32,000 bases of DNA from Candidatus Electronema halotolerans. Its GTDB lineage: Bacteria > Desulfobacterota > Desulfobulbia > Desulfobulbales > Desulfobulbaceae. The position numbers and the translations under genes are program-made. This document shows, piece after piece, positions 2,260 to 18,162 of this stretch; position 1 is the stretch's first letter, and each line of letters opens with the position of its first letter. Below the pieces are notes generated by a model. That model was not told the DNA's origin. It saw only the letters and a program-made list of their open reading frames with translations, and searched no databases. The stretch spans positions 3,030,001-3,062,000 of the forward strand of contig OW818675.1 of assembly GCA_942493095.1 (NCBI GenBank). Direction: 5' to 3'.

Positions 2260-4704
2260 ATGGGACAGGCGCACGATGAAAAACTGATTCTTTGGTTTGA
2301 TGAGATCGGCATTGAGGATGTGCCCCTTGTGGGCGGCAAAAATGCCTCGCTGGGCGAGATGTATCAGCATCTGACCGGCAAGGGCGTGGCTGTCCCGCAT
2401 GGTTTTGCGATCACTGCCTACGCCTACCGCTATCTGCTCAAAGAGGCGGGCGTTGAAGAGGAAATCAGGAAGGTGCTCTCTGATCTGGACACCGAGGACA
2501 TGGCCAACTTGGCCGAGCGCGGCGAGAAATGCCGGAACATCATCCGCAACGCCCCGTTTCCGCCCCTGCTGCGCGACGCGATCATTGAGGCCTACAAGAA
2601 GATGGAGGCTGAATATGGCGAGAACGTGGATGTGGCTGTCCGTTCCTCAGCCACGGCGGAAGACCTGCCTGATGCCTCGTTTGCCGGTCAGCAAGAGACC
2701 TATCTGAACATTCACGGCTACGAGAACATCATTCAGAACTGCCGCAAGTGCTTTGCCTCGCTGTTCACCAATCGGGCGATTTCTTACCGTCAGCATCAGG
2801 GCTATGGCCAGTTTGACGTTTATCTGTCAATCACCATTCAGAAGATGGTGCGCTCTGACTCGGCCTGCTCCGGCGTTATGTTCTCCATTGACACAGAGTC
2901 CGGCTTCAAGGATGCGGTCTTCATCACCGGTGCTTGGGGCTTGGGCGAGAACGTGGTGCAGGGCGCGGTCAACCCGGACGAGTATTACGTCTTCAAGCCG
3001 ACCCTGAAGCAGGGCAAGCGGCCTGTGGTCAGCAAGAAGGTCGGTTCCAAGGCGATCAAGATGATCTATGACAACGACCCTGCCAGCCCGGAGCCGGTCA
3101 GGAACATTGACACCACTGAGGCGGAGCGCAACGCCTATGTAATCAACGATGATGAGATTCTTCAGCTCGGCAGCTGGGCCTGCATCATCGAGGAGCATTA
3201 CAAGAAGGGCATGGACATCGAGTGGGCCAAGGACGGCGACGGCGTGAACGTCGGCACTGGCAAACTGTTCATTGTCCAAGCCCGGCCTGAGACCGTGCAT
3301 TCGCAGGCAAAAAAAGGCATGATCGAGACCTACAAGCTGCTGGAGCACGGCAAGGTGCTGACCGAGGGCTTGGCAGTCGGCAGCAAGATTGGCCAAGGCG
3401 TGGCCCACTGCATTGCGGATGCCAAAGATATTGGCACGTTCCGCAAGGGCGAAGTGTTGGTCACAGACATGACCGATCCTGACTGGGAGCCGATCATGAA
3501 GATTGCTGCCGCCATTGTCACCAACCGGGGCGGTCGCACCTGCCATGCCGCGATCATTTCCCGCGAGCTGGGCATTCCCTGCGTCATCGGCACCGGCGAC
3601 GGCTCGGAGCGGATCGTCACCGGGCAGGAAGTCACAGCCTGCTGCGCTGAGGGCGAGACTGGCTATGTTTATGAAGGTCTGCTCAAATATGAGGTGCAGA
3701 AAACCGATCTCAGCAGCATGCCGCCGACCAAGACCAAGATCATGATGAACTTGGCCATCCCGGAGAAAGCCTTCTCCGAATGCCAGATTCCCAACGACGG
3801 CGTTGGCTTGGCCCGCGAGGAGTTTGTCATCAACTCCCATATTGGCCTGCATCCGCTCGCGTTGTACAACTACGAGGAGCTGAAGGCATCGAGCGACCCG
3901 GAGAAGCAGGAGGTTGTCCGTCTGATTGATGCGAAGACTGGTGCATACACGGACAAGAAGCAGTTCTTTATCGACAAGGTGGCCGAAGGCGTGGGCCGGA
4001 TTGCTGCTGGTTTCTATCCGAAAGATGTCATTGTCCGCCTTTCTGACTTCAAGAGCAATGAGTACGCCAACCTTGCAGGCGGTCATTTCTACGAGCCGGA
4101 AGAGGAAAACCCGATGATCGGCTGGCGCGGCGCGTCCCGCTACTACGATCCCAAGTACCGGCCTGCCTTTGAGCTGGAGTGCCAAGGCCTGCTCAAGGCC
4201 CGTAATGACATGGGCCTGACCAATATCAAGCTGATGGTTCCTTTCTGCCGCACCCCGGAAGAGGGTAAAAAGGTCATTGAGGTCATGCGTGAATGCGGCT
4301 TAGTGCAGGGCGAGAACGGCTTGGAGCTGTACGTGATGTGCGAGATTCCGAGCAACGTCATCTGCGCGGATGCGTTCGCTGACATTTTTGATGGCTTCTC
4401 CATCGGCTCCAACGATTTGACTCAGCTCACTTACGGCCTTGACCGCGACTCCGGCATCCTGACCGGCATTGCGGACGAGCGCCATGAGGCGGTCAAAGAA
4501 ATGATCCGCATGGTGATCAAGACTGCCAAGCGGCGCGGGCGGAAGATCGGCATCTGCGGCCAAGGGCCGTCCGACTTCCCGGACTTTGCCACCTTCTTGG
4601 TTGAAGAGGGCATTGACTCCATGTCCCTGATCCCGGACACGGTCATCAAGACCCGTTTGGCTGTGCATGAGAAGGAAAAGGAGCTGGGCATCGCGCCGGA
4701 GTAA
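2260..4704 (+). CDS. ppsA: Phosphoenolpyruvate synthase (pyruvate, water dikinase)
   Basis: 814-aa ORF. ATP-grasp N-terminus (VPLVGGKNASLGEM), phospho-His swivel motif GGRTCHAAIISRELGIPCV and C-terminal PEP-utilising domain (GICGQGPSD). The last ~600 nt are repeated twice downstream. Confidence 0.95.
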   Translation: MGQAHDEKLILWFDEIGIEDVPLVGGKNASLGEMYQHLTGKGVAVPHGFAITAYAYRYLLKEAGVEEEIRKVLSDLDTEDMANLAERGEKCRNIIRNAPFPPLLRDAIIEAYKKMEAEYGENVDVAVRSSATAEDLPDASFAGQQETYLNIHGYENIIQNCRKCFASLFTNRAISYRQHQGYGQFDVYLSITIQKMVRSDSACSGVMFSIDTESGFKDAVFITGAWGLGENVVQGAVNPDEYYVFKPTLKQGKRPVVSKKVGSKAIKMIYDNDPASPEPVRNIDTTEAERNAYVINDDEILQLGSWACIIEEHYKKGMDIEWAKDGDGVNVGTGKLFIVQARPETVHSQAKKGMIETYKLLEHGKVLTEGLAVGSKIGQGVAHCIADAKDIGTFRKGEVLVTDMTDPDWEPIMKIAAAIVTNRGGRTCHAAIISRELGIPCVIGTGDGSERIVTGQEVTACCAEGETGYVYEGLLKYEVQKTDLSSMPPTKTKIMMNLAIPEKAFSECQIPNDGVGLAREEFVINSHIGLHPLALYNYEELKASSDPEKQEVVRLIDAKTGAYTDKKQFFIDKVAEGVGRIAAGFYPKDVIVRLSDFKSNEYANLAGGHFYEPEEENPMIGWRGASRYYDPKYRPAFELECQGLLKARNDMGLTNIKLMVPFCRTPEEGKKVIEVMRECGLVQGENGLELYVMCEIPSNVICADAFADIFDGFSIGSNDLTQLTYGLDRDSGILTGIADERHEAVKEMIRMVIKTAKRRGRKIGICGQGPSDFPDFATFLVEEGIDSMSLIPDTVIKTRLAVHEKEKELGIAPE

Positions 4705-4728
4705 ACGGCGGCGGTAGCGAAGGATGAG

Positions 4729-4764
4729 AAAGGGCGGGGTTGTATCTCGCCCTTTTCTGCTTTT
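4729..4764 (+). terminator. Rho-independent terminator after ppsA
   Basis: Stem aaagggcg / cgcccttt with an 11-nt loop, followed by a T-rich tail (ttttctgctttt). A related hairpin follows ppsA copy 3. Confidence 0.6.
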
Positions 4765-4819
4765 CGATGGAACAGAAGGAAATCAAGGTCATTTTTACGA
4801 AAATGCCAACAAAGGTATC

Positions 4820-6205
4820 ATGAAAATAAAAATTAGAAATCTTGGCGCGTTGAAGCAGGCAGAGTTCATGCTTGGAGAGATGACAATTATATGTGGCAGC
4901 AATAATACAGGAAAAACCTATGCCACCTATGCGCTTTATGGTTTTTTATCTACTTGGCATGAAGTGCTGTCTATTAATGTCGAATCAAAAAATGTAAGTG
5001 AATTGATGACTGATGGTGTGACACATATAGATATCAATAATTATATTAATAATGCTGAACATATATTGTCTGACGGGTGTGCAAGATATACAAATTTTTT
5101 GCCAACAATTTTTGCAGCTCCAAAGGACAGATTCAAAGAGAGCTCATTCGCTGTGACTGTTGCCGCAGATCATATAAAACCTTTTGGAAAATATGAGCGG
5201 CGCATGAAGGCAGCAAGCAAAGAACTGTTCTTTATTACAAAGGAGGAGACCAGCTCTGATGTGGTTGTCACTTTGCTTGTGGAGAAAGGCCGGGTTAGAC
5301 TGCCGCAAGACGTGATCAAAAAAGTTATTGGCAACGCACTGAAAGAAATTATTTTTGGGCAGTTGTTTCCAAACCCGTTCATTGCCAGCGCGGAGAGGAC
5401 AGGCGCGGCCATCTTTCGCAAGGAACTGAATTTTGCCCGCAATCGTCTTCTCGAAGAGATGACGAAAACAGATCAATCGGTCAATCCGGTTGATCTCCTT
5501 TTTAAAACATATCAAGATTATGCGCTTCCAGTGAAGGATAACGTTGACTTTACTCGACAAATTGAAACGTTAGCAAAAAAAAGCAGCTTTATTGATGAAC
5601 AACACCCGGATGTGATAATTAATTTTTCTGATATTATCGGCGGCGAATATCGAGTTACAAAGAATGATGAGCTGTATTATATACCAAAAGGTAAAAGAGT
5701 TAAACTAACGATGGATGAAAGCTCAAGTGCAGTACGTTCATTGCTGGATATCGGTTTTTATTTAAAACACATGGCGCGGCCTGGTGATCTGCTGATGGTA
5801 GATGAGCCAGAACTTAATTTGCACCCGGAAAATCAGCGGCGAGTGGCAAGGCTGTTCGCGAGATTAATCAATCTTGGCATTAAAGTTTTTATTACGACCC
5901 ACAGTGACTATATTATCAAAGAACTGAACACGCTGATCATGCTTAATCATGACAAGCAGCATCTAAAAAATATTGCTGACCGGGAAGGATATCGCAAAGA
6001 TGAACTTATTTCTTCCGATCAAGTCAGAGTTTATATTGCTGAAGAATCAATGGTAAAGCTAGATGGAGGGCAGCGTAAAACCCGCTGTCAAACATTAGTA
6101 CCTGCCGATATAGATCCTGAACTTGGCATTCAAGCACGTAGTTTCGATACAACTATTGAATCCATCAATAGAATTCAAGAAGAAATTGTCTGGGGAGAGG
6201 AGTGA
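4820..6205 (+). CDS. ABC/SMC-like P-loop ATPase (AAA_15/AAA_21-type), predicted defence-system ATPase
   Basis: Walker A GSNNTGKT (nt 4895-4918), signature-like SSSAVRSLL, Walker B/D-loop LLMVDEPELNLHPENQ (DEPE at 5801-5812) and H-loop FITTHSDY. A long insertion separates Walker A from the signature motif. I prefer the ATG at 4820 (MKIKIRNLG...) because the longer frame from 4724 runs through the ppsA terminator. Confidence 0.8.
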   Translation: MKIKIRNLGALKQAEFMLGEMTIICGSNNTGKTYATYALYGFLSTWHEVLSINVESKNVSELMTDGVTHIDINNYINNAEHILSDGCARYTNFLPTIFAAPKDRFKESSFAVTVAADHIKPFGKYERRMKAASKELFFITKEETSSDVVVTLLVEKGRVRLPQDVIKKVIGNALKEIIFGQLFPNPFIASAERTGAAIFRKELNFARNRLLEEMTKTDQSVNPVDLLFKTYQDYALPVKDNVDFTRQIETLAKKSSFIDEQHPDVIINFSDIIGGEYRVTKNDELYYIPKGKRVKLTMDESSSAVRSLLDIGFYLKHMARPGDLLMVDEPELNLHPENQRRVARLFARLINLGIKVFITTHSDYIIKELNTLIMLNHDKQHLKNIADREGYRKDELISSDQVRVYIAEESMVKLDGGQRKTRCQTLVPADIDPELGIQARSFDTTIESINRIQEEIVWGEE

Positions 6206-6208
6206 AGC

Positions 6209-6766
6209 ATGACAGATATTGAACTCCTTGGTCTGATGGTAAAAGATGAAATAAAAGTGTCTACCGAGGATAGAAATGGAAAGTTGTATGTCACATTAAG
6301 TGACCCACAATCTCCCAAAGGTTTAGTCACCATTGCAGGAGTGCCAGATAACGTCCTTGTCATCAAAGCAGATAACTTTGACTCGCCTGATTCATTTTTT
6401 ACTGGCTCAAGAGGAGAATGTAAACGGGCTGATTTCATTATCGCAGCAGAAACCGCACAGAAAAAAGTTATACTGTGCATTGAGATGAAATATAGGAAAG
6501 GCAAGCCAAATGAAATTGTTCAGCAGTTAAGAGGAACTCGCTGCCTTCTTTCTTATTGTCAGGAAATAGGTAAGGCCTTTTGGGACAAGCAAGATTTCCT
6601 TAAAGGGTATGTTTATCGTTTCGTCAGCATAGGCAATCTCAGCATAGCAAAGCAGAAAACCCGGATAGATCGTCAGTCAGCAATACATGACCGACCAGAA
6701 CGGATGATGAAAATTGATTGGCCAAATAGCCGAATCGAATTTAATAGGTTAGCTGGAAAAAGATGA
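6209..6766 (+). CDS. Small protein with PD-(D/E)xK nuclease-like motif (putative effector)
   Basis: 185-aa ORF starting 3 nt after the ATPase stop. Core pattern KRADFIIAAE...KKVILCIEMKYRKG...QQL gives D (6431-6433) on one hydrophobic strand and E-x-K (6482-6490) on the next, as in restriction-endonuclease-fold enzymes. This is a motif-level call only. Confidence 0.6.
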   Translation: MTDIELLGLMVKDEIKVSTEDRNGKLYVTLSDPQSPKGLVTIAGVPDNVLVIKADNFDSPDSFFTGSRGECKRADFIIAAETAQKKVILCIEMKYRKGKPNEIVQQLRGTRCLLSYCQEIGKAFWDKQDFLKGYVYRFVSIGNLSIAKQKTRIDRQSAIHDRPERMMKIDWPNSRIEFNRLAGKR

Positions 6767-6769
6767 TAT

Positions 6770-7123
6770 ATGAAAGCAAACATTGCGAATTCAATAACTA
6801 TCAACAGCAGCTACGCCGAACTGCTGCCTTCTTTTCATGATGACCTTCAGTCTGCAGTTGATGCCGCGCTGCAACGCTATCTGATTGATGAGATTGCCGC
6901 TAAGATTGCTGGCCTGAAGAAGAAAGAAAAGCTGTTCCGGCTCAAATACAGCTGCGATTACAAAACCTTTTCCCAGCGCATAGCTGAGGACGAGGAATAC
7001 ATCAATCAAATTGAGAGCAGTATCAGCAAACTCTGGGAGTCTGATTTAGCTGATTGGGAATTCTGCGAGAAAGGAATAAATGATTGGACGAAAAAGTTGC
7101 AGAATATTTTGCTGCTGTCGTAA
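6770..7123 (+). CDS. Hypothetical small acidic/helical protein (possible antitoxin-like partner)
   Basis: 117-aa ORF starting 3 nt after the previous stop. It overlaps the next ORF by 40 nt. No family was recognised. Confidence 0.55.
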   Translation: MKANIANSITINSSYAELLPSFHDDLQSAVDAALQRYLIDEIAAKIAGLKKKEKLFRLKYSCDYKTFSQRIAEDEEYINQIESSISKLWESDLADWEFCEKGINDWTKKLQNILLLS

Positions 7124-7479
7124 AAACAGCGGCAGACATCTTTGAGAACTGTGCGCATGAGACAGATTTTACACCGGAACGCGCTATCCTCCATCTTCAT
7201 GGGGAATACGATTCATGCAAGATTCTGATCACCGAGCTGTTCAGCGATAAGGTGCGCAAATACCGGTATTACGTTTTACAAGGAAGTCGGGTGGAGGCAG
7301 GCTTTGACAATGCCCCTGATCCACGGGCTATACGAATGAAATACGGCAAGATCGGCAAAGAACACGCTGGTGAGAATATTCCGCATCTTCATCTGGACGA
7401 CAAGACCAGCATGGTGCTGACTGAGGAGATGATGTTCTCTGATTTTGTTGAGTGGTTGCGGAAAAATCCTATCTTCTAA
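7084..7479 (+). CDS. DUF6516/TumE-like small protein (family assignment tentative)
   Basis: 131-aa ORF with a TTG start immediately after an in-frame TGA. aaagga lies about 10 nt upstream. KYRYY...GFDNAP...IPHLHL...FSDFVEWL resembles, from memory, the KYRYHW...WDNAPHH...PHHxH layout of DUF6516 proteins. Confidence 0.5.
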   Translation: MDEKVAEYFAAVVKTAADIFENCAHETDFTPERAILHLHGEYDSCKILITELFSDKVRKYRYYVLQGSRVEAGFDNAPDPRAIRMKYGKIGKEHAGENIPHLHLDDKTSMVLTEEMMFSDFVEWLRKNPIF

Positions 7480-7561
7480 CCAAACCATTTCTCTTTTCCA
7501 CTCCGGTCAAGAGGCGTTTTCCATTGGTCAGAAAATAGTTGCGGCCTTCTGCGGTAGGGTT

Positions 7562-8174
7562 TTACGAGCTTTCCGAACGAGGAAAACCCGATGATTGGCT
7601 GGCGGGCGCGGCGCGTCCCGCTACTACGATCCCAAGTACCGGCCTGCCTTTGAGCTGGAGTGCCAAGGCCTGCTCAAGGCCCGTAATGACATGGGCCTGA
7701 CCAATATCAAGCTGATGGTTCCTTTCTGCCGCACCCCGGAAGAGGGCAAAAAGGTCATTGAGGTGATGCGCGAATGCGGCTTGGTCCAGGGCGAGAACGG
7801 TTTGGAGCTGTACGTGATGTGCGAGATTCCGAGCAACGTCATCTGCGCGGATGCGTTCGCTGACATCTTTGATGGCTTCTCCATCGGCTCCAACGATTTG
7901 ACTCAGCTCACTTACGGCTTAGACCGCGACTCCGGCATCCTGACCGGCATTGCGGACGAGCGTCATGAGGCGGTCAAAGAAATGATCCGCATGGTGATCA
8001 AGACTGCCAAGCGGCGCGGGCGCAAGATCGGCATCTGCGGCCAGGGGCCGTCCGATTTCCCGGACTTCGCCACCTTCTTGGTTGAGGAGGGCATTGACTC
8101 CATGTCCCTGATCCCGGACACGGTCATCAAGACCCGTCTTGCAGTGCATGAGAAGGAGAAGGAGCTGGGCATTG
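7562..8174 (+). pseudogene. ppsA: Displaced ppsA 3'-end fragment (copy 2), truncated at its 3' end by IS66
   Basis: Aligns to ppsA nt ~4085-4692. The encoded 190 aa are identical to copy 1 despite about 20 nucleotide differences. Indels, including an extra ggcg near 7603, break the frame at the 5' junction. The last 4 codons are replaced by the IS end. Confidence 0.85.
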
Positions 8175-8192
8175 GTAACTGATCACAGGGTG
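8175..8192 (+). repeat. IS66 left terminal inverted repeat
   Basis: GTAACTGATCACAGGGTG matches the reverse complement of 9643-9660 at 15 of 18 positions. Confidence 0.7.
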
Positions 8193-8267
8193 TCTCTAAA
8201 AAACACTGGCGCTTGGCATCGCAACTGGATAAATTGTGAGCAGTAATTTTTTCCGCAGGAGAAAGCT

Positions 8268-9638
8268 GTGACCGCCCCGTTCCATTGTGAAAATTTTGAG
8301 ATAAGCGAGGAAGACCTTGCCGCTACACCTCCTGCGGTGCGGAAGCTGCTGTCTTTTTTGATCGCTGAGGTAACGCGGCTGAGAAAACGGGTCGAAGAGC
8401 TTGAGGCGAAACTCGGCGAAGATTCCTCGAACTCGAACAGGCCGCCTTCTTCCGACTCTCCGTTTACAGAAAAACGGCAGAGAGATCAGGCGGGGAAGCC
8501 CCGGAAAAAGCGGCGTGGATATCGTCAGGAGCTGATGCCGCCGACAGAAACGCAAAAAATGTATCCTTCCGCCTGCTCGTGCGGTTGCGGCAAATTCAAA
8601 AACATACGGTCATATTATACGCATCAGCATATTGAACTGCCGGAAATCGTGATGCAGGTCAGGCATTTCCTTCTTTATAAAGGGGAATGCGCCGCCTGCG
8701 GCAAAACCGTCAGAGGCTGTGTTCCCGATGAATTCAGAACCGGTTTCGGGGCGCGGTTCACCGCGCTGGTTGCCGAACTGAGCGGCATGGACGGCAGCAG
8801 CCGGGGAACTGTGCGGAAGTTCATCCGTTCCGTGCTCGGCGTTCCTATCAGCGCCGGGGCGGTGCAGAAGATCATTGACCGGGCTTCGGCGGCTGTCGCG
8901 CCGCACTATGAGGCCGTCCGGGCTGCCGTCACAAGCGGGGATGTCGGGCATATTGATGAAACGACGTGGAAAACTGGCGGCAGACTGCGCTGGTTATGGG
9001 TTATGGCGAACCGGCAGGCCGCGTTCTTCATGATTCATCCGAAACGCTCCAAGGAAGCGTTTGAAGAACTGATCGGCGCTTGGAACGGCATTCTCATCAG
9101 CGACGGATACAACGTGTACCAAAAATGGGTCGGCAAGCGGCAAACTTGCCTCGCGCACCTGATCCGCCGTGCCGACGGCCTTGCGGAACGCGCTGACCCT
9201 GAACTCGCCGCCTGCGGAAAATGGGCCGCTGCGGAACTGCGGCGGCTCTGCCGCATGGCGAAAGACCCGCCGACTGAAGGCGAACAGTCCGCATTTTATG
9301 CCCGGCTCTGCCGACTTATCCTACGCTGGCGCGATTGCGACAGTGATGCGGGGAGGTTTGTCCGTCATATTGACAAGGAAATGGAGGCGTTGTTCACTTT
9401 CTTGCTCGAAGAAGGCGTAGCGCCGACAAATAATCCAGCGGAACGGATGCTCCGCTTCGGCGTACTGTGGCGCAAACGGAGTCAGGGCACTGACAGCGAC
9501 AAGGGAAACCGCTGGGTTGAACGAATCCTTTCCCTCCGGCAGACATGCCTGCTTCGGGGAAAATCCACTTTCGAGGTGCTCACCGAGGCCATGCGCTGCT
9601 ATTTCAGAGGACAGATGCCGGATTTAAGCTGGGTCTGA
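8268..9638 (+). CDS. IS66-family transposase (TnpC-like)
   Basis: 456-aa ORF with a GTG start and aggaga RBS. N-terminal leucine-zipper region followed by SSNSNRPPSSD, a zinc-finger-like CSCGCGKF...CAACGK, and a DDE core. All are typical of IS66 transposases. Confidence 0.9.
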   Translation: MTAPFHCENFEISEEDLAATPPAVRKLLSFLIAEVTRLRKRVEELEAKLGEDSSNSNRPPSSDSPFTEKRQRDQAGKPRKKRRGYRQELMPPTETQKMYPSACSCGCGKFKNIRSYYTHQHIELPEIVMQVRHFLLYKGECAACGKTVRGCVPDEFRTGFGARFTALVAELSGMDGSSRGTVRKFIRSVLGVPISAGAVQKIIDRASAAVAPHYEAVRAAVTSGDVGHIDETTWKTGGRLRWLWVMANRQAAFFMIHPKRSKEAFEELIGAWNGILISDGYNVYQKWVGKRQTCLAHLIRRADGLAERADPELAACGKWAAAELRRLCRMAKDPPTEGEQSAFYARLCRLILRWRDCDSDAGRFVRHIDKEMEALFTFLLEEGVAPTNNPAERMLRFGVLWRKRSQGTDSDKGNRWVERILSLRQTCLLRGKSTFEVLTEAMRCYFRGQMPDLSWV

Positions 9639-9642
9639 GCGG

Positions 9643-9660
9643 TACCCTGTGATCGCTTAC
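9643..9660 (-). repeat. IS66 right terminal inverted repeat
   Basis: The reverse complement reads GTAAGCGATCACAGGGTA. Confidence 0.7.
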
Positions 9661-10053
9661 GAAAACGGCTTGGAGCTGTACGTGATGTGCGAGATTCCGA
9701 GCAACGTCATCTGCGCGGATGCGTTCGCTGACATCTTTGACGGCTTCTCCATCGGCTCCAACGATCTGACCCAGCTCACTTACGGCTTAGACCGCGACTC
9801 CGGCATCCTGACCGGCATTGCGGACGAGCGCCATGATGCGGTCAAAGAAATGATCCGCATGGTGATCAAGACTGCCAAGCGGCGCGGGCGCAAGATCGGC
9901 ATCTGCGGCCAGGGGCCGTCCGATTTCCCGGACTTTGCCACCTTCTTGGTTGAAGAGGGCATTGACTCCATGTCCCTGATCCCGGACACGGTCATCAAGA
10001 CCCGTCTTGCAGTGCATGAGAAGGAGAAGGAGCTGGGCATTGCGCCGAAGTAA
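9661..10053 (+). pseudogene. ppsA: Displaced ppsA 3'-end fragment (copy 3), 5'-truncated at the IS66 right end
   Basis: Aligns to ppsA nt ~4311-4704 and keeps its own stop codon and terminator. It differs from copies 1 and 2 by one internal residue (E to D in ERHDAVKEM). Its C-terminal ...GIAPK also differs from copy 1 (...GIAPE). Confidence 0.85.
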
Positions 10054-10084
10054 GGTGGCTGCAATAAGAGCTTGAAGCACGATG

Positions 10085-10120
10085 AAGGGCGGCCTGCGGG
10101 TTCGCCCTTTTTTGTTTTTT
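10085..10120 (+). terminator. Rho-independent terminator after ppsA copy 3
   Basis: Stem aagggcg / cgccctt followed by ttttttgtttttt. It is homologous in layout to the hairpin at 4729-4764. Confidence 0.65.
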
Positions 10121-10154
10121 CTCCGCTGCTTGACAGGATGCAAATGATCATGCT

Positions 10155-10568
10155 ATGCTGGAAACCGTTTCAAAATCTCGCTTCAAAGCAAAGGCACTTG
10201 AATATTTTCGCAAGATAGAGCAGAACGGGCAGGCTGTGATCATCATTGATCATGGGAAGCCCGTGCTGCAAGTGCTGCGTTTTGATGATCCTCTGGAGCC
10301 AGTTGGCATGTCTGGCTTTGTGGCGGCAGGAATCAGGAGTGAATATCTTTTTTTTCTTTGCAGCAGAAGAGTGTGTGCGAATGATTCCATCAGGGTGGCA
10401 GAGTGGCCTGCCGGGTGTTGTTCAGAAACGCTTATCCCAAGGCAACGGATGTGCAAGCCTCATGCGGCAGGCATATTCAGCGCGGATGCTGTTTTTGGCT
10501 TTTCTTGCATCTGGATTGGTGTTATAGTTAGGCAGCACTTATCCCAGCGGTCAGAAAAGGAGATATGA
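10155..10568 (+). pseudogene. Phd/YefM-type antitoxin N-terminus, probably degenerate and orphan
   Basis: The first ~50 aa (SKSRFKAKALEYFRKIEQNGQAVIIIDHGKPVLQVL) fit the Phd/YefM pattern. The remaining ~85 aa look like non-coding read-through. No toxin ORF follows. Confidence 0.35.
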
Positions 10569-10795
10569 ACGGCGAGGATAAGAATCGATTTGTGAATCAA
10601 CATCATCAGAGCGGCTGCCCTGACGATGTTCAGTGATGCAAGTCAATTGCCGCTGTGTGCATTCATATACGGCAAAAGTGCGACTCACCCCGATTAAGCG
10701 GCATCGGCAGGAAATTTTTTGGTTTTACAAAACGTTTTATCTGGCGGTATTATAACCGTCTTATATAGCAACTCAAAAAGGCAGAGGTAAGAAAG

Positions 10796-12880
10796 ATGAA
10801 AGGAAAAAAAAGTTATTCCCGCAGGCCGGTGTGCTTGCTCGCCCCGGCAGCACTTATTGCAGCGTTGGGCCTTGGCACAGCGTCGCACGCTTTCGCGGCG
10901 CAGGAGATTGATGTTCAGGGCGGAGCAGACAACACCTCCATTGCTGACGGCAGTGCCACGCCATCTGTTGATGATGGCACAGACTTCGGCGGCGTTGAGA
11001 CCAGCACTGATGCAGTCAAAACCTACACCATCCTCAATACTGGTGATGCAGACTTGACACTGAACGGCACGCCGCTTGTTAAGCTTAATCCAGTTGCGAC
11101 TGATGATAAAGGCTGCGACGCTTTCAGTGTTACCACCCAGCCGACAAGCCCGATTGCTGCGACTAAAAACACCACCTTCACGGTGACGTACAATCAAGCC
11201 GCATCCGGCAGCTTGGATAAATGCCAGATAAGCATCGCCAACGATGACGACAATGAAAATCCTTACGATTTTGTCATCCAAGGTTCAACTGTCCCAGAGA
11301 TGGATGTGCAAGGGAAGACCGTCTCGATCACTGACGGAGACACCACGCCATCTGCTGCTGATGACACTCTCTTTACCGCAGGCAGCGGGTCGGCCAAAAC
11401 CTACACCATCCTCAATACTGGTGGTGGAGACTTGACTCTGAGTGGCACTCCGCTTGTTGATCTTGTTGAGTTTGCAGATGGTGATGGAAGCTGTGACGAT
11501 TTCAGCGTCACCGCCCCGCCGACAAGCCCGATTGCTGCGGGCGGCAACACCACATTCGTTGTGACGTACACTCCGACTGGTGATGAAAATGGAACACCAT
11601 GCAAGGTCAGCATCGCAAATAATGATGCCGATGAGAATCCTTATGATTTTGCCATCCAAGTTGCGCTTCCTGAGATCGATGTTCAGGGAAACAGTGTCTC
11701 CATTGCTGACGGTCATGACACGCCATCTTCTGCTGATGACACCGACTTTGGCGGCGTTCCCACCAGCACTGATGTGACCAAAACCTACACCATCCTCAAC
11801 ATTGGCGGCGCAGACCTGACTTTGGACGGCACTGACTCGAATTATGTTGTGCTTGAACCGGTGGCGGATGGTGATGCAGGCTGCGGCGCGTTCACTGTCA
11901 CCCAGCCGACAGAAACAACGATTGCTGCGGGCGCAAGCACCACTTTCACGGTGACATACAATCAAGAGACAGTCAACACCGTGGATAAATGCGGGATCAG
12001 CATCGCCAATGACGATGCCGATGAGAATCCTTATGATTTCACCATCCAAGCCTCAACCGGCCCTGAAATGGATGTTCAGGGAAACAGCGTCTCCATTGCT
12101 GACGGCGACGATACGCCAGACATGGCTGATGACACCGACTTCGGCGGCGTTCCCACCAGCACTGATGTGACCAAAACCTACACCATTCTTAACATTGGCG
12201 GTGCAGAGCTGACCTTGGGTGTTGATCCTGTCACTAACGATGCTGCTGCTGGTTGCAATTTCTTCACCATCACCCAGCCGGCGGAAACAACACCGATTGC
12301 TGCGGGCGCAAGCACCACTTTCACGGTGACATACAAACAAGCGACAGCCAACACCTTGAATACATGCGGGATCAGCATCGCCAATAACGATGCCGATGAA
12401 GGTCCTTCTTATGATTTTGTCATCCAAGCCTCAACCGGCCCTGAGATGGATGTTCAGGGAAACAGCGTCTCCATTGCTGATGGCGATGACACCCCAGACG
12501 TGGCTGATGACACCGACTTCGGCACAGTTAACGTCGGTAAAACTCTGAGCAAAGCCTACACTATCCTAAACACTGGCGGTGCAAATTTGACCTTGGACGG
12601 CGATGCTCCGGATTATGTTGTGCTTAATGGTGAAGGTTGCGCCTCATTCAAAGTCACCACCCAGCCAACAACACCGATTGCTGTGGGCGCAACATCTGCT
12701 GTCACCTTCACAGTGGAATATGCCCCGACCGCTGTTTCGGAAGGAGAACAATGCACTGTCAGCATTGACAATAATGACAGCAATGAGAACCCTTATGATT
12801 TTGTCATCCAAGGGAAAGGCGGAAAGAGCGGCGCAAGTTACCTCCCGGCGGTCTATGAAGTACTGCTGAACGGAAACTAA
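10796..12880 (+). CDS. Secreted repeat protein with five tandem Ig-like (choice-of-anchor-D / ASH-like) domains
   Basis: Signal peptide ending AFA|AQE. Five units of ~125-131 aa each start (E/P)(I/M)DVQG. Each carries KTYTILNTGGxxLTL, two Cys, and ANxDxDENPYDFxIQ. Confidence 0.85.
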   Translation: MKGKKSYSRRPVCLLAPAALIAALGLGTASHAFAAQEIDVQGGADNTSIADGSATPSVDDGTDFGGVETSTDAVKTYTILNTGDADLTLNGTPLVKLNPVATDDKGCDAFSVTTQPTSPIAATKNTTFTVTYNQAASGSLDKCQISIANDDDNENPYDFVIQGSTVPEMDVQGKTVSITDGDTTPSAADDTLFTAGSGSAKTYTILNTGGGDLTLSGTPLVDLVEFADGDGSCDDFSVTAPPTSPIAAGGNTTFVVTYTPTGDENGTPCKVSIANNDADENPYDFAIQVALPEIDVQGNSVSIADGHDTPSSADDTDFGGVPTSTDVTKTYTILNIGGADLTLDGTDSNYVVLEPVADGDAGCGAFTVTQPTETTIAAGASTTFTVTYNQETVNTVDKCGISIANDDADENPYDFTIQASTGPEMDVQGNSVSIADGDDTPDMADDTDFGGVPTSTDVTKTYTILNIGGAELTLGVDPVTNDAAAGCNFFTITQPAETTPIAAGASTTFTVTYKQATANTLNTCGISIANNDADEGPSYDFVIQASTGPEMDVQGNSVSIADGDDTPDVADDTDFGTVNVGKTLSKAYTILNTGGANLTLDGDAPDYVVLNGEGCASFKVTTQPTTPIAVGATSAVTFTVEYAPTAVSEGEQCTVSIDNNDSNENPYDFVIQGKGGKSGASYLPAVYEVLLNGN
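10904..12813 (+). repeat. Five tandem coding repeats of ~375-393 nt
   Basis: Unit starts are at 10904, 11297, 11672, 12065 and 12443. The first ~100 nt of units 4 and 5 are about 90% identical by eye. Confidence 0.8.
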
Positions 12881-13026: not shown

Positions 13027-13911
13027 TCAACGCAGGCCGATCTGCTCCATTGCCGCAGTCAGTTTGTTCAGCGAAGCCTCGTCCATCTCGGTCATGGGCA
13101 GGCGCAGCTCCGGCGAGGCGATCTTGCCGAGCAGATGCAAGGCTTTTTTGGCCGGGGCCGGGTTGGGGCAGCAGAACATGGTGCTCATGAGCGGGAAAAG
13201 CTGGTAGTGCAGCTCCTTGGCCTTGGCTAAATCACCATTCAGGGCCGCTTCCATCAGCTCGGCCATAGCCTTGGGCATCACGTTCGAGGTCACGGAAATC
13301 ACACCCTTGCCGCCGATCAGCACTGTGGGCATGGAGGTGAAGTCATCGCCGGACAGCACAATGAAGTCCTTGGGGCAGAGCCGGATGATCTCGGAAATCT
13401 GATTCAGGCAGCCGCAGGCCTCCTTGATGGCAATGACATTGGGCAGCTCTGCCAGCCGGGCCACAGTGGCCGGGGCCATGTTGGTGACAGTCCGGCTCGG
13501 CACATTGTACAGGACTATGGGAATATTCACAGCCTCGGCAATGGTTTTGAAATGCTGATACAGCCCGTCCTGGCTTGGCTTGTTGTAATAGGGCACCACG
13601 GACAGGACTGCGTCCGCGCCGCTGGCCTTGGCTGACTCGGTCAGTTCAATGGCCTCCAGGGTGTTGTTGGCCCCAGCTCCGGCAATGACCGGCACCCGGC
13701 CCGCCACAGTCTTGACAGTCAGCTCAATGACCCGCTTGTGCTCATCAAAGCTGAGGGTGGCGGACTCGCCGGTGGTGCCGCAGGGCACCAAGCCGTGGAT
13801 GCCGCTTTCGATCTGGAAATTGATCAGATTGACCAAGCTTTCCTCATCAACGTTGCCGTCCCGCATCGGGGTGACAATGGCAGTGATGGCTCCCTGAATG
13901 TTTTTTGTCAT
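13027..13911 (-). CDS. dapA: 4-hydroxy-tetrahydrodipicolinate synthase
   Basis: MTKNIQGAITAIVTPM... and GTTGES are typical of DapA. I prefer the ATG at 13911, which is preceded by aaggagg, over the longer frame starting at 13962. Confidence 0.9.
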   Translation of the reverse strand: MTKNIQGAITAIVTPMRDGNVDEESLVNLINFQIESGIHGLVPCGTTGESATLSFDEHKRVIELTVKTVAGRVPVIAGAGANNTLEAIELTESAKASGADAVLSVVPYYNKPSQDGLYQHFKTIAEAVNIPIVLYNVPSRTVTNMAPATVARLAELPNVIAIKEACGCLNQISEIIRLCPKDFIVLSGDDFTSMPTVLIGGKGVISVTSNVMPKAMAELMEAALNGDLAKAKELHYQLFPLMSTMFCCPNPAPAKKALHLLGKIASPELRLPMTEMDEASLNKLTAAMEQIGLR

Positions 13912-14221
13912 CGCATCCTCCTTGAATGTAAGGCAATGCCCTGCTGGGCAGTTTTTTCGCATGACTCCTCAGAGGAGTCTTTTTACGACGGCATTATAAA
14001 CAACATCTGCATGTTCGCCACCCTTAACTGGCCTGCATTCAAATAAATCAGCAGTTCCGCTATAGCTGAGGGAGAAGAGCGGCTGCTTGACTTGAACAAG
14101 CTCAGGTCTGCAATCAGCAGAAAGAATCCGGCTTGCTTAACTTGGCCGCAGCGGGTATAGTAAAAAAACGCCCGCGCAGGGGAAATTTTATCAAATCCTT
14201 GATCTTATCGGCAAAAAAACA

Positions 14222-16001: not shown

Positions 16002-17018
16002 TTGAAGAGAAAGACCGGACTTCATCAGGCAACTGAACAGCATCTGGAATTCAGCGATGATGCCGCTGCCCAAGTGTTGTTCGGCGACCTGAACCGCAAT
16101 CTGCACACCGTTGAACAGGCTGCCGGAGTCCGCATTCATCAGCGGGGCGGCAGCCTGCTGCTTCAAGGGCAGGCCCATGCCGTGGAGCTGGCCGCGTCTC
16201 TGCTCCGCCAGCTCTACGGCTTAGTCCGCAAAGGCTGTCCGGTTTTCAGTCAGGATGTGGCCTTTGGCCTGAAAATCTTGGAAGCCTCCCCTGAGGCGGC
16301 CTTGGAGGAAATCTTTCTCGACAAGGTCTGCATCACGGCCAAAAAGCGGATCATCTCGCCAAAAACACTCAATCAGAAAAATTACATCGAGGCCATCCGC
16401 GAGAATGGCATAGTTTTCGGCATTGGCCCGGCAGGCACCGGCAAGACCTATTTAGCTGTGGCTATGGCGGTGGCCGCCCTGACTTCGGAGCTGGTGCAGC
16501 GAATCATTCTCACCCGGCCTGCTGTGGAGGCGGGCGAGAAGCTCGGCTTTCTGCCCGGCGACTTGGCTCAGAAGGTTGATCCCTACCTGCGCCCGCTCAC
16601 CGATGCCCTGAACGAGATGCTCGGCCCGGACAAGGCGGCGGAGCTGGTTGAGCGCGGGGTGATTGAGATCGCGCCGTTGGCCTTCATGCGCGGCAGAACC
16701 CTGAACAAGGGGTTCATCATTCTTGACGAGGCCCAGAACACCACCCGCGAGCAGATGAAGATGTTCCTGACCCGGATTGGCTTTGACTCGCAGGCCGTGA
16801 TCACCGGCGACATCACCCAGGTCGATCTGCCCGGAGGGCAGGCTTCAGGGCTGATTGATGCCAAACAGGTGCTGCGCAACATTGAAGGCATCAGCTTCTG
16901 CCAGTTTGACAGCAGCGACGTGGTCCGTCATCCGCTGGTCCAGCAGATCATCCTTGCCTACGAAAAAGCAGGCCGCAAAGAACAGGCGGATGCCGGGCAT
17001 GACCATCAACCTGATTGA
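16002..17018 (+). CDS. phoH: PhoH-like ATPase
   Basis: Walker [14 protein letters not shown] and Walker [10 protein letters not shown]. The start is uncertain. TTG at 16002 avoids an 83-nt overlap with the upstream gene that the ATG at 15903 would create. Confidence 0.85.
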
Positions 17019-17439
17019 TCAGGCCGACCAAAGCCGCTTCCGGCTCAATCATGCGTTCCTGCGAGCGCGGACAGCCCGGCTGCTGGACCTGCTTGGCCAG
17101 CAGGAGGCTGCGGTCAGCGTGGTTCTGCTGACAGATCAGGAAATGGCCCGCTACAATCAGACCTACCGGCACAAGGATGGGCCGACCAATGTGCTCTCCT
17201 TTCCGGCGGAGATGGAGGGCGAGCTGGGTGATATTCTTATTTCGGCAGACACGGCCTGGCGGGAAGCCGGAGAAAAACAGATTCCCCTCCATCAGCACCT
17301 CACGTGGCTGCTCATTCACGGTCTGCTGCATCTGCTGGGCCATGATCACGAGGCCTCCGAGGAGCAGGCGGAAATCATGCAGGACAAGGAAACACAGCTT
17401 TTTCAAGCTATTCAGCATCTTCATTCAGGAGGACGGATC
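16990..17439 (+). CDS. ybeY: Endoribonuclease YbeY domain (no stop codon; frame continues into pdxJ)
   Basis: Zinc motif [11 protein letters not shown]. The start is ATG at 16990 or 16999, overlapping the phoH end. No stop codon occurs before the pdxJ ATG at 17440, which is in the same frame. Confidence 0.8.
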
Positions 17440-18162
17440 ATGCCGCAGCTTGCTGTCAATGTTGACCATATTGCCACGATCAGAGAGGCCAGAGGCGGAG
17501 CGGAACCAGACCCGGTGCTGGCCGCAGGCATCTGCGAGCTGGCCGGAGCCAAAGGCATCGTCGTGCATCTGCGGGAGGATCGCCGTCATATTCAGGATCG
17601 GGACGTGCGCCTGCTCCGCCAGACTGTCAAGACCCGGCTCAATCTGGAAATGGCGGCAGTCAAAGAAATCATCGGCATTGCCTTGGAAGTGCTGCCGGAC
17701 TTGGTCACGCTGGTGCCGGAAAAGCGGCAGGAGCTGACCACTGAAGGCGGCTTGGACATCATTGCCAACGAGAAAAAAATCAAAAAAACGGTCAGCAGAA
17801 TGATCGAGGCAGGGATTCCAGTCTCCATTTTTGTTGATCCTGATGCCGAGCAGATCAAGGCGGCCTTGGATGTCGGCGCAGCCTGTGTCGAGCTGCACAC
17901 AGGCCGTTACTGTGACGCGAAGAGTCAGCAGGAGCGGGACCGGGAATTTCATCTGCTCGAACAGGCGGCAGAGACCGCTTTTGCCTCTGGCCTGCGGGTC
18001 AATGCGGGCCACGGTCTTGACTACCGCACCACAGGCCGGATCGCCGCTATTCCGGTAATTGAGGAGTTGAGCATTGGTCATGCCATCATTGCCCGGGCCG
18101 CCTTTGTCGGCTTGGATCAGGCGGTGCGGGAAATGCAGGACTGCATTGATCTGGCCGCCTGA
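17440..18162 (+). CDS. pdxJ: Pyridoxine 5'-phosphate synthase
   Basis: [19 protein letters not shown]..., [10 protein letters not shown] and NAGHGL are typical of PdxJ. It has its own strong SD, aggagg, with a 7-nt spacer (acggatc) before the ATG. Confidence 0.9.

Follow-up and report, generated by a model that had tools for sequence, protein, structure and literature searches.

How does a working housekeeping gene come to be followed by several partial copies of its own 3′ end? The question is raised by ppsA, which encodes phosphoenolpyruvate synthase, in a 32,000-nucleotide (nt) stretch of the genome of Candidatus (Ca.) Electronema halotolerans, an organism of the cable-bacterium group, referred to here as the window. 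The intact gene is followed there by a small islet of foreign-looking composition (islet 1), a second copy of the ppsA 3′ end, an insertion sequence (IS) of the IS66 family and a third copy (Table 1). Comparison of these sequences with those of related genomes gives good support to the view that DNA has been inserted serially into working ppsA genes, displacing the resident 3′ end. Insertion at this site was serial, the ppsA ends are of different origins and the cargo has turned over between genomes. Positions in ppsA of all copies and junctions are quoted throughout as equivalents in the numbering of the window ppsA.

Three ppsA ends of different origins

Self-BLAST of the window aligns 4099-4691 with 7575-8172 (95.8% identity, 20 mismatches, 3 gaps), 4311-4704 with 9660-10053 (95.7%, 17 mismatches) and 7792-8174 with 9660-10042 (97.65%, 9 mismatches), each with E = 0, and a repeat search recovers the same three-copy family. 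These results agree with the original prediction, made from the letters of this sequence, that the window holds three non-identical copies of the ppsA 3′ end. It had further counted about 20 differences but identical amino acids between copies 1 and 2, and about nine differences with a single E-to-D change between copies 2 and 3. A codon recount returned the same values: in the 189 codons compared, 18 (20 nt) distinguish copy 1 from copy 2, all 18 synonymously, and nine distinguish copy 2 from copy 3, one of them non-synonymously (E to D). Copies 1 and 3 differ at 15 codons, two of which are non-synonymous, an E to D and an E to K at the last codon, the latter omitted from the original prediction. 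The variants reported as common to copies 2 and 3 against copy 1 amount to 11 nucleotides, and copies 1 and 3 each indeed possess their own stop codon and terminator hairpin (T1 and T3 respectively). For copy 2, the repeat itself is real while its extent needed revision: clean homology starts only at 7607 (equivalent to ppsA 4126), and both the degenerate edge which precedes it (7551-7606) and the IS66 element had been missed. This edge includes five indels, one a 4-nt insertion, and there are none between 7607 and 8174.

The excess of synonymous changes has a neutral probability of 3e-10 for copies 1 and 2, 4e-6 for copies 2 and 3 and 5e-5 for copies 1 and 3. Synonymous divergence (dS) between pairs of copies in the window is 0.10-0.16 and the ratio of non-synonymous to synonymous divergence (dN/dS) is 0.03-0.07. 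If as few as a quarter of the 20 substitutions that separate copies 1 and 2 had taken place in a pseudogene, an unaltered amino-acid sequence would have a probability of ~6e-4. The earlier proposal, that each copy belonged to a working ppsA of a different lineage while the divergence arose, is borne out by these figures and by a like signal in the displaced copies of relatives. The differences between copies 1 and 2 are also distributed as a mosaic, with none in 138 positions over 4126-4263 and then 20 in 429 (Fisher p = 0.006); over the same 138-nt tract copy 1 differs from Ca. Electronema aureum at 15 positions. Sliding-window divergence over the whole of ppsA revealed no clear recombination breakpoint. 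Copy 3 ends in APK*, as does ppsA of Ca. E. aureum, and is probably the oldest resident ppsA end.

Such an arrangement might also be produced in assembly, if a multicopy IS, or versions of a single ppsA 3′ end from different strains, had been wrongly joined. Divergence among the copies is of the size expected between strains, misjoins are classically made at an IS, and the two IS junctions (8174/8175 and 9660/9661) are without independent confirmation. Nevertheless, two independent short-read assemblies reproduce 4627-7634 exactly, both islet junctions included: contig L081 (ERR9670067) is 100% identical to window 4627-7634 and contig L082 (ERR9669565) to 4627-7423. The ppsA-to-islet and islet-to-copy-2 junctions, including the 4-nt insertion, are confirmed by these contigs, which meets in part the concern about mis-assembly raised with the original prediction. 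The short-read contigs stop where the copies become identical, as k-mer assemblies should. A further contig from ERR9670067 (L085) encodes orf137, immediately right of copy 3, exactly and appears to carry the junction between copy 3 and the DNA downstream, its span of ~9976-11779 being deduced from gene layout, not from alignment. In addition, three unrelated assemblies (L086, L087 and L090, described below) show the same kind of structure, and ppsA homology in the window ends exactly at both IS termini. We therefore regard an artefact as highly improbable.

The IS fills the whole gap between copies 2 and 3, an interval which the original prediction had counted as a second integration; the interval is not an islet, and that part of the prediction is not supported. 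The element has the terminal inverted repeats GTAACTGATCACAGGGT / GTAAGCGATCACAGGGT, which begin with GTAA, and its transposase carries DDE_Tnp_IS66 and zf-IS66 domains, as is usual in the family. Members of the IS66 family are expected to generate an 8-bp target duplication (ISfinder). Here, in contrast, the flanking 8-mers GGGCATTG (left) and GAAAACGG (right) differ, so that no such duplication is present, and the flanks correspond to ppsA positions 4693 (left) and 4312 (right), which do not match. The IS thus joins 4693 of one ppsA allele to 4312 of another, and the missing duplication points to a recombinant or rearranged IS66 copy rather than to a member of another family. On the sequence of its flanks, the arrangement is best explained by recombination between IS copies located at 4693 and 4312 of two ppsA alleles; it bears the signature of such recombination or else of an IS-mediated rearrangement. 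Recombination of this kind would also restore a nearly full-length ppsA. In topology this junction equals those of the islets.

In the relative L086, the working ppsA ends at the equivalent of 4690 (3094-3130 region of L086), 3 nt from the IS66 site at 4693. Insertions may be tolerated, or may even occur by preference, at the very 3′ end of ppsA. The odd end of the L086 gene (…GGTAA…) was considered as a relic of the same IS66 element and this was dropped: the match is only 5 nt long and L086 has no homology to the IS.

Table 1. Positions of the features discussed, counted from the first nucleotide of the window
Feature	Position	Strand	Evidence or remarks
Intact ppsA (phosphoenolpyruvate synthase, 814 aa), target gene	2260..4704	+	Pfam PPDK_N, PEP-utilizers, PEP-utilizers_C
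Copy 1, 3′ segment of working ppsA repeated downstream	4078..4704 (clean register 4126-4704)	+	Self-BLAST, alignment
T1 terminator hairpin and U-tract	4728..4756	+	Terminator scan, 13-pair stem; -19.1 kcal/mol, z = -2.8
PD-T4-4_A / PDC-M47A AAA_15 ATPase	4820..6205	+	PADLOC PDC-M47A 791 bits, PD-T4-4_A 544 bits; Pfam AAA_15, AAA_21
PDC-M47B / weak PD-T4-4_B partner gene	6209..6766	+	PADLOC PDC-M47B 245 bits; PD-T4-4_B E = 2.5e-4
orf117, small protein paired with orf131	6770..7123	+	No family match; 92% identical homologue downstream of ppsA in Ca. E. aureum
orf131, small toxin-antitoxin-like protein of a widespread family (344 homologues)	7084..7479	+	Weak TumE-toxin similarity
Conserved right-end spacer of R1 element	7490..7553		87.5% identical in L086 and L090
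Degenerate 5′ edge of copy 2 (R1 junction)	7551..7606	+	Local alignment; five indels vs ppsA 4078-4125
Copy 2, displaced ppsA 3′ segment (= 4126-4693), cut by the IS 11 nt before the stop	7607..8174	+	
IS66-family insertion sequence, 1486 bp, one transposase gene (8268-9638)	8175..9660	+	Pfam DDE_Tnp_IS66, zf-IS66, DUF6444; NCBIfam transpos_IS66 241 bits
Copy 3, displaced ppsA 3′ segment (= 4312-4704) with own stop	9661..10053	+	
T3 terminator hairpin and U-tract	10079..10115	+	-20.8 kcal/mol, z = -3.5

The ppsA 3′ end in related genomes

The order nifS-nifU-ppsA is kept across Desulfobulbaceae, and the DNA 3′ of ppsA is not. The closest genome is that of Ca. E. aureum GS, whose ppsA is 93% identical at the protein and 89% at the nucleotide level; in this locus (L001) ppsA is followed by a gene for a 210-aa secreted protein, by orf117, by a truncated orf131 homologue (13590-14119 region) and by a probable IS at the contig end. 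A minus-strand open reading frame (ORF) at that end (13900-14076) resembles a transposase, presumably of the IS1 type. Since this short-read contig stops there, a ppsA fragment lying still farther downstream would escape notice. Three more informative loci were reached via homologues of orf131 and ppsA ORFs of fragment length. In L086 (GCA_026122915.1), a full ppsA ending at ~4690 (ELGR*) is followed by NACHT/STAND and MNT-HepT genes and then by a ppsA fragment (ppsA′) of ~790 nt, starting at 3897 and ending with T1; to its right are PD-T4-4 A and B, orf117, orf131, orf115 and the spacer, then a decayed 60-nt ppsA remnant. L087, from a Joint Genome Institute (JGI) metagenome, has ApeA-HEPN, orf117, orf131, four small genes, the spacer, a degenerate edge and ppsA′ with a T3-type terminator. 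L090, also from a JGI metagenome, has nifU and a full ppsA with T1, then two unknown genes, orf115 and the spacer, MNT-HepT and ppsA′ (from 3897) with T3. In line with the integration originally proposed, this one site thus holds other cargo in the relatives, again with displaced ppsA 3′ copies as its boundaries.

In the window, direct repeats of the ppsA 3′ end flank the element and the target gene is intact; the working gene of L086 ends in the non-native ELGR*. Across the window, L001, L086, L087 and L090 the cargo 3′ of ppsA varies and is free of mobility genes: PD-T4-4, ApeA-HEPN, NACHT with MNT-HepT, the 210-aa secreted protein and unknown genes. On the left, nifS-nifU-ppsA forms a conserved flank; DNA right of the last ppsA copy is unrelated among the four genomes (window, L086, L087 and L090), so that ppsA′ is the sole right-hand homology available. 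At the start of the L086 contig (1-400) an IS (DDE_Tnp_1) occupies the place of the conserved nifS-nifU.

Two classes of junction recur. In the R1 class, the spacer and an eroded edge are joined to ppsA at ~4078-4126; this edge is common to the window, L087 and L086, and the window and L087 share the same indels. The spacer of L087 lies within a 117-nt match to window 7490-7599 (84.6%). In the R2 class, HepT meets ppsA at 3897, and L086 and L090 agree here to the nucleotide. Relative to R1, the R2 element is on the left in L086 and on the right in L090, which indicates independent arrival in different orders. Overall, right junctions are found at three ppsA positions (~3897, 4078-4126 and 4312) and left junctions likewise at three: ~4690 (L086), 4693 (the IS) and, in the other cases, past the terminator. 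T1-type terminators follow working or surrogate ends (the window, the middle copy of L086, L086_mid, and the full gene of L090, L090_full), and T3-type terminators follow the rightmost displaced copies in the window, L087 and L090. This distribution fits T3 belonging to the original resident gene. It also fits the earlier suggestion that the present 3′ end of the working gene came with the islet, a T1-ended functional or surrogate end being contiguous with the PD-T4-4 islet in two genomes.

The displaced copies of the relatives resemble those of the window in their substitutions. In all comparisons, including displaced against displaced, dN/dS is ≤0.076. The full and displaced copies of L086 differ by a dS of 0.32-0.38 with dN/dS of 0.02, and those of L090 by a dS of 0.31 with dN/dS of 0.05; the L086 displaced copy is as distant from its own ppsA as from that of other species. 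L086_mid and the displaced copy of L090 (L090_disp), which lie beside the same R2 junction, differ by a dS of 0.76 with dN/dS of 0.05, indistinguishable from pairs of functional genes. Lesions are limited to one or two indels per copy and differ by genome: +4 nt in copy 2, -34 and -1 in L086, -45 and -1 in L087 and -45 in L090. The only heavily decayed copy is the 60-nt remnant of L086, which is also the only one too short to recombine. By these comparisons, the junctions are of old date and held in common, whereas the displaced copies, in their bodies, are young as pseudogenes. Such a combination rules out both simple decay after local duplication and co-inheritance of pseudogenes, and requires repeated capture of functional 3′ ends, the central point of the original prediction. 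A role of the displaced copies as functional small ORFs was also considered and rejected, since those of the relatives carry frameshifts and deletions of 34-45 nt.

A different history might be imagined in which old local duplications of the ppsA 3′ end were inherited vertically and stayed gene-like through conversion from the working copy within the genome, without any mobility of an element, later allelic replacement accounting for the differences. The R1 and R2 junctions are indeed common to lineages which have diverged by 9-15%, the PD-T4-4 blocks of the window and L086 are 85.5% identical, near the 86.2% of ppsA itself, copies 1 and 2 share the identical 138-nt tract, and the three copies of the window group together when compared with those of relatives. 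However, the opposite order of R1 and R2 in L086 and L090 would need extra rearrangements from one ancestor, no homogenisation is visible between the displaced and working copies of L086 at a dS of 0.32-0.38, and copies beside the same junction in different genomes show dN/dS of 0.05 rather than ~1. Cargo also differs between genomes, and the import of foreign ppsA 3′ ends would still be required. This history is in our view improbable.

Displaced ppsA copies are confined to a small Electronema-like subclade, though metagenome-assembled genomes (MAGs) from short reads tend to break at such repeats. No second ppsA fragment was found in any of 80 species-representative genome loci, and exact-protein look-ups with ppsA, the IS66 transposase, the copy-3 ORF and dapA returned no record and no empty site from the same species. 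A metagenome scan with a ppsA 3′ pattern common to all copies retrieved two contigs (88-90% identity) with an uninformative downstream context. Three candidates were set aside: the fragment-length ppsA ORF of L089 is a frameshift-split gene, that of L091 is a gene broken by an N gap, and a ppsA insertion of ~250 nt in Desulfobulbaceae UBA5173 (L016, ~12155-12402) is a run of Ns, a scaffold gap and not a mobile element. The closed genome of Ca. E. aureum GS contains 125 more IS elements than the short-read MAG (PMC10030654).

Routes of entry at the ppsA 3′ end

We propose that the ppsA 3′ end is an accretion site which islets enter by RecA-dependent recombination, a ppsA segment serving as homology arm, and consider the chances of this account to be evenly balanced. 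New DNA would be inserted in a working ppsA together with a replacement 3′ segment, and each insertion would push the earlier 3′ end downstream as a 5′-truncated, non-functional copy, leaving the newest insert leftmost. The islets would have no integrase-based mobility of their own and would pass between related strains as blocks consisting of a ppsA 3′ end, cargo and a ppsA′ fragment. Entry might take the form of two crossovers, each arm pairing with the one ppsA of the recipient, or a circle might loop out and integrate in Campbell fashion. The cargo would be accompanied by the junction and some tens of nucleotides at the start of the right arm, which would decay, the rest of the right copy being the recipient's own, until recently functional, end; the sharp eroded R1 edge would be explained because this junction margin is never refreshed by recombination.

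Applied to the window, the original gene would have had the copy 3 end and T3. IS66-bridged recombination of two ppsA alleles would then have created ppsA(...4693)-IS-(4312...), with copy 3 on the right and a ppsA still functional, minus its last three residues. Finally, an R1-type islet, comprising a surrogate 3′ end with T1, the PD-T4-4 pair, the toxin-antitoxin (TA)-like orf117/orf131 and the spacer with its eroded ppsA edge, would have entered this functional copy and displaced copy 2.

Several features speak for homologous recombination: the repeats extend over 0.38-0.81 kb, there is more than one junction position, copies 1 and 2 form a mosaic, and copies within a genome are nearest or near-nearest relatives of each other with 4-7.5% divergence, a level to be expected if donors must be similar enough for recombination. 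The heavy decay of the 60-nt L086 remnant alone, and the unrelated DNA right of the last copies, speak for it too. No recombinase was detected in the window or in L086, L087 and L090, within ~10 kb, using Pfam, NCBIfam, PHROGs and precomputed Pfam hits, and none of the four loci contains genes of ICEs (integrative and conjugative elements) or IMEs (integrative and mobilizable elements). The earlier statement that no integrase remains can thus be extended to the relatives. Its proposal of serial integration by elements which target a gene 3′ end fared less evenly. The serial part stands, given the opposite R1 and R2 orders in L086 and L090; the site-specific part is not supported, there being no recombinase, junctions at several positions and long repeats, and homologous recombination explains the data at least as well.

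Site specificity would nonetheless be retained if the islets were integrase-less remnants or satellites, similar to cis-mobilizable elements (CIMEs), and an integrase encoded elsewhere, by an ICE, a prophage or a chromosomal gene, acted on attachment (att) sites in ppsA, with fixed cores at ~3897 (R2) and ~4120 (R1) and surrogate 3′ ends which keep ppsA intact. We regard this as the main rival to our account and judge it less likely. It would account for the same junction nucleotide in different genomes next to lineage-specific, recently functional displaced copies, and for a degenerate element-side arm adjoining a clean displaced copy. A small inverted repeat is present in the R1 edge, and the terminator of the surrogate end is of a separate type, T1. 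Site-specific elements typically accumulate in tandem, and in CIMEs the att sites are retained but the recombination genes lost (PMC7563491). Nevertheless, neither integrase nor excisionase was found in the four loci or their ~10-kb flanks, and no integrase-bearing partner lies in tandem. The surrogate ends, at 580-810 nt, are far longer than needed; the left junction of L086 truncates ppsA (ELGR*) without a proper surrogate end; and what joins copy 2 to copy 3 is an IS rather than an att site. The conserved spacer has no match among viral contigs, and no report of ppsA serving for attachment turned up in the literature searched.

The inverted repeat in the R1 edge reads CTTTCC-GAACGA-GGAAAA in the window (7568-7588, 5/6 matching) and TTTTCC-GAACGA-GGAAAA in L087 (~3600-3620, perfect), and is absent from the matching sequence of working ppsA. 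The match may be fortuitous, or the repeat may serve as a recombinase core.

Entry by RecA-dependent recombination must also be weighed against a number of difficulties. The same junction nucleotide in different genomes is equally expected from a site-specific recombinase, of which the R1-edge repeat could be the core, and the ~10 kb examined round each locus leaves room for a trans-acting recombinase. Neither an excision product nor an empty site nor a circular junction was seen, mobility being deduced from comparisons alone, and independent contig support covers the islet junctions, not the two IS junctions. The first creation of each junction still needs an illegitimate event which lacks an explanation. 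The simple Campbell model does not provide for the identical 138-nt tract and needs gene conversion or later allelic replacement. Finally, we know of no natural competence or other DNA uptake route in cable bacteria.

A more far-reaching possibility, which we put forward tentatively and with some doubt, is that these islets represent an undescribed class of integrase-less, homology-arm islets, in which a cassette of defence or TA genes stays attached for good to a long 5′-truncated piece of a housekeeping gene, so that the block could enter any related genome by RecA alone. Each insertion would duplicate the target and leave a stack of displaced gene ends, the eroded edge being the margin which never recombined. 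Still more novel would be a variant in which one of the small conserved element-end proteins (orf117/orf131 or orf115/orf89) is a new kind of recombinase.

Cargo, neighbouring genes and relation to known systems

Islet 1 (~4767-7550) has a GC content of 41.6%, against 57-59% for ppsA and nifSU. Its adjacent A and B genes match the PD-T4-4 / PDC-M47 profiles, as do their L086 orthologues, and the pair is predicted phage-defence cargo. PD-T4-4 is an anti-phage system (PMC9519451). The window pair resembles it in being a two-gene operon whose A gene matches PD-T4-4_A and PDC-M47A and whose B gene matches PDC-M47B, and differs in that gene B matches PD-T4-4_B weakly (scores in Table 1). The genes for orf117 and orf131 overlap; the match to Pfam TumE is at E = 0.11 for orf131 and 1e-4 for its homologue P0044. 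These two are not necessarily imported cargo, since Ca. E. aureum also has them downstream of its ppsA. In L088 (Logan SRR12687664, 232-971) a pair 90% identical to orf117-orf131 lies beside Ysc84, rubredoxin and ribosomal L21/L27 genes; since ppsA is not in view there, the pair is itself mobile or multi-copy and untied to ppsA.

In the window, nifS and nifU lie upstream of ppsA, and housekeeping genes follow downstream: dapA, DsbA, PhoH, YbeY/PdxJ, GGDEF, RsmB, a TonB receptor and CysG/HemD. Immediately right of copy 3 are a promoter-like TTGACA-18-TATGCT (10130-10159) and orf137 (10155-10568, + strand), a 137-aa ORF whose first ~45 residues weakly match the Phd/YefM antitoxin (E = 1.3e-3, below the Pfam cut-off) and whose remainder looks non-coding; it is probably a decayed TA remnant. 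Directly downstream of the hotspot, 10796-12880 (+) encodes a 694-aa protein with about five tandem units of ~378 nt (~126 aa), mutually 65-90% identical, which match HYDIN/VesB-like Ig and DUF1573 domains. It is probably a repetitive surface or periplasmic protein. Further on, a single 435-aa ORF (16855-18162, +) combines a YbeY endoribonuclease domain (residues 79-185) with a complete PdxJ domain (198-431), and is either a gene fusion or two genes merged by mechanical ORF calling.

Many defence islands occupy hotspots without recognisable mobility genes. The ppsA locus documents its own history in a form unusually easy to read: with each arrival a displaced piece of ppsA stayed behind which can be dated, and four genomes present different cargo and arrival orders at one site. 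If islets are driven by RecA and carry a portable ppsA arm, this would be a simple and general route by which defence genes spread among related strains without integrases, and would also explain stacked partial copies of housekeeping genes elsewhere. Cable bacteria are uncultured and genetically intractable, and the locus supplies for them a first mobile-DNA hotspot together with a defence repertoire (PD-T4-4, NACHT/STAND, ApeA-HEPN, MNT-HepT, TumE-like). It also carries a warning for assembly, short-read contigs breaking exactly at such repeats.

Among known systems, e14 and phage 21 in the E. coli icd gene are prophage-like elements which encode an integrase and bring a replacement 3′ end, with a surrogate of ~165 bp. 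Such replacement, with the old end left downstream, is classical for elements with an integrase in both protein-coding and tRNA genes. As at ppsA, the target is functional via the new 3′ end, the displaced end is kept downstream and the differences are largely silent. The ppsA loci differ in having no integrase, surrogates of 0.4-0.8 kb, several junction positions and cargo limited to defence and TA genes. A second parallel is the tandem accretion of streptococcal ICEs, IMEs and CIMEs at the 3′ ends of genes such as fda and tRNA-Lys (PMC7563491). In both cases elements without recombination genes are stacked in variable order at the 3′ end of one gene and bounded by repeated target-derived sequence. 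However, CIMEs keep att sites and rely on the integrase of a tandem ICE or IME, whereas no partner, att core or conjugation remnants were found at ppsA.

The third comparison is with minimal mobile elements (MMEs), in which cargo is exchanged by homologous recombination (Saunders and Snyder 2002, cited in PMC3787668). As far as that account goes, MMEs resemble the ppsA islets in carrying variable cargo between conserved flanks in close relatives, without mobility genes and with transfer ascribed to homologous recombination; they differ in being swapped between two distinct conserved genes without duplication, whereas both arms of the ppsA islets come from one gene. Because of this single origin, insertion produces a long direct repeat, older ends accumulate and the target is duplicated rather than swapped. 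The ppsA locus mixes features of surrogate-end elements, CIME arrays and MMEs, and fits none of them fully.

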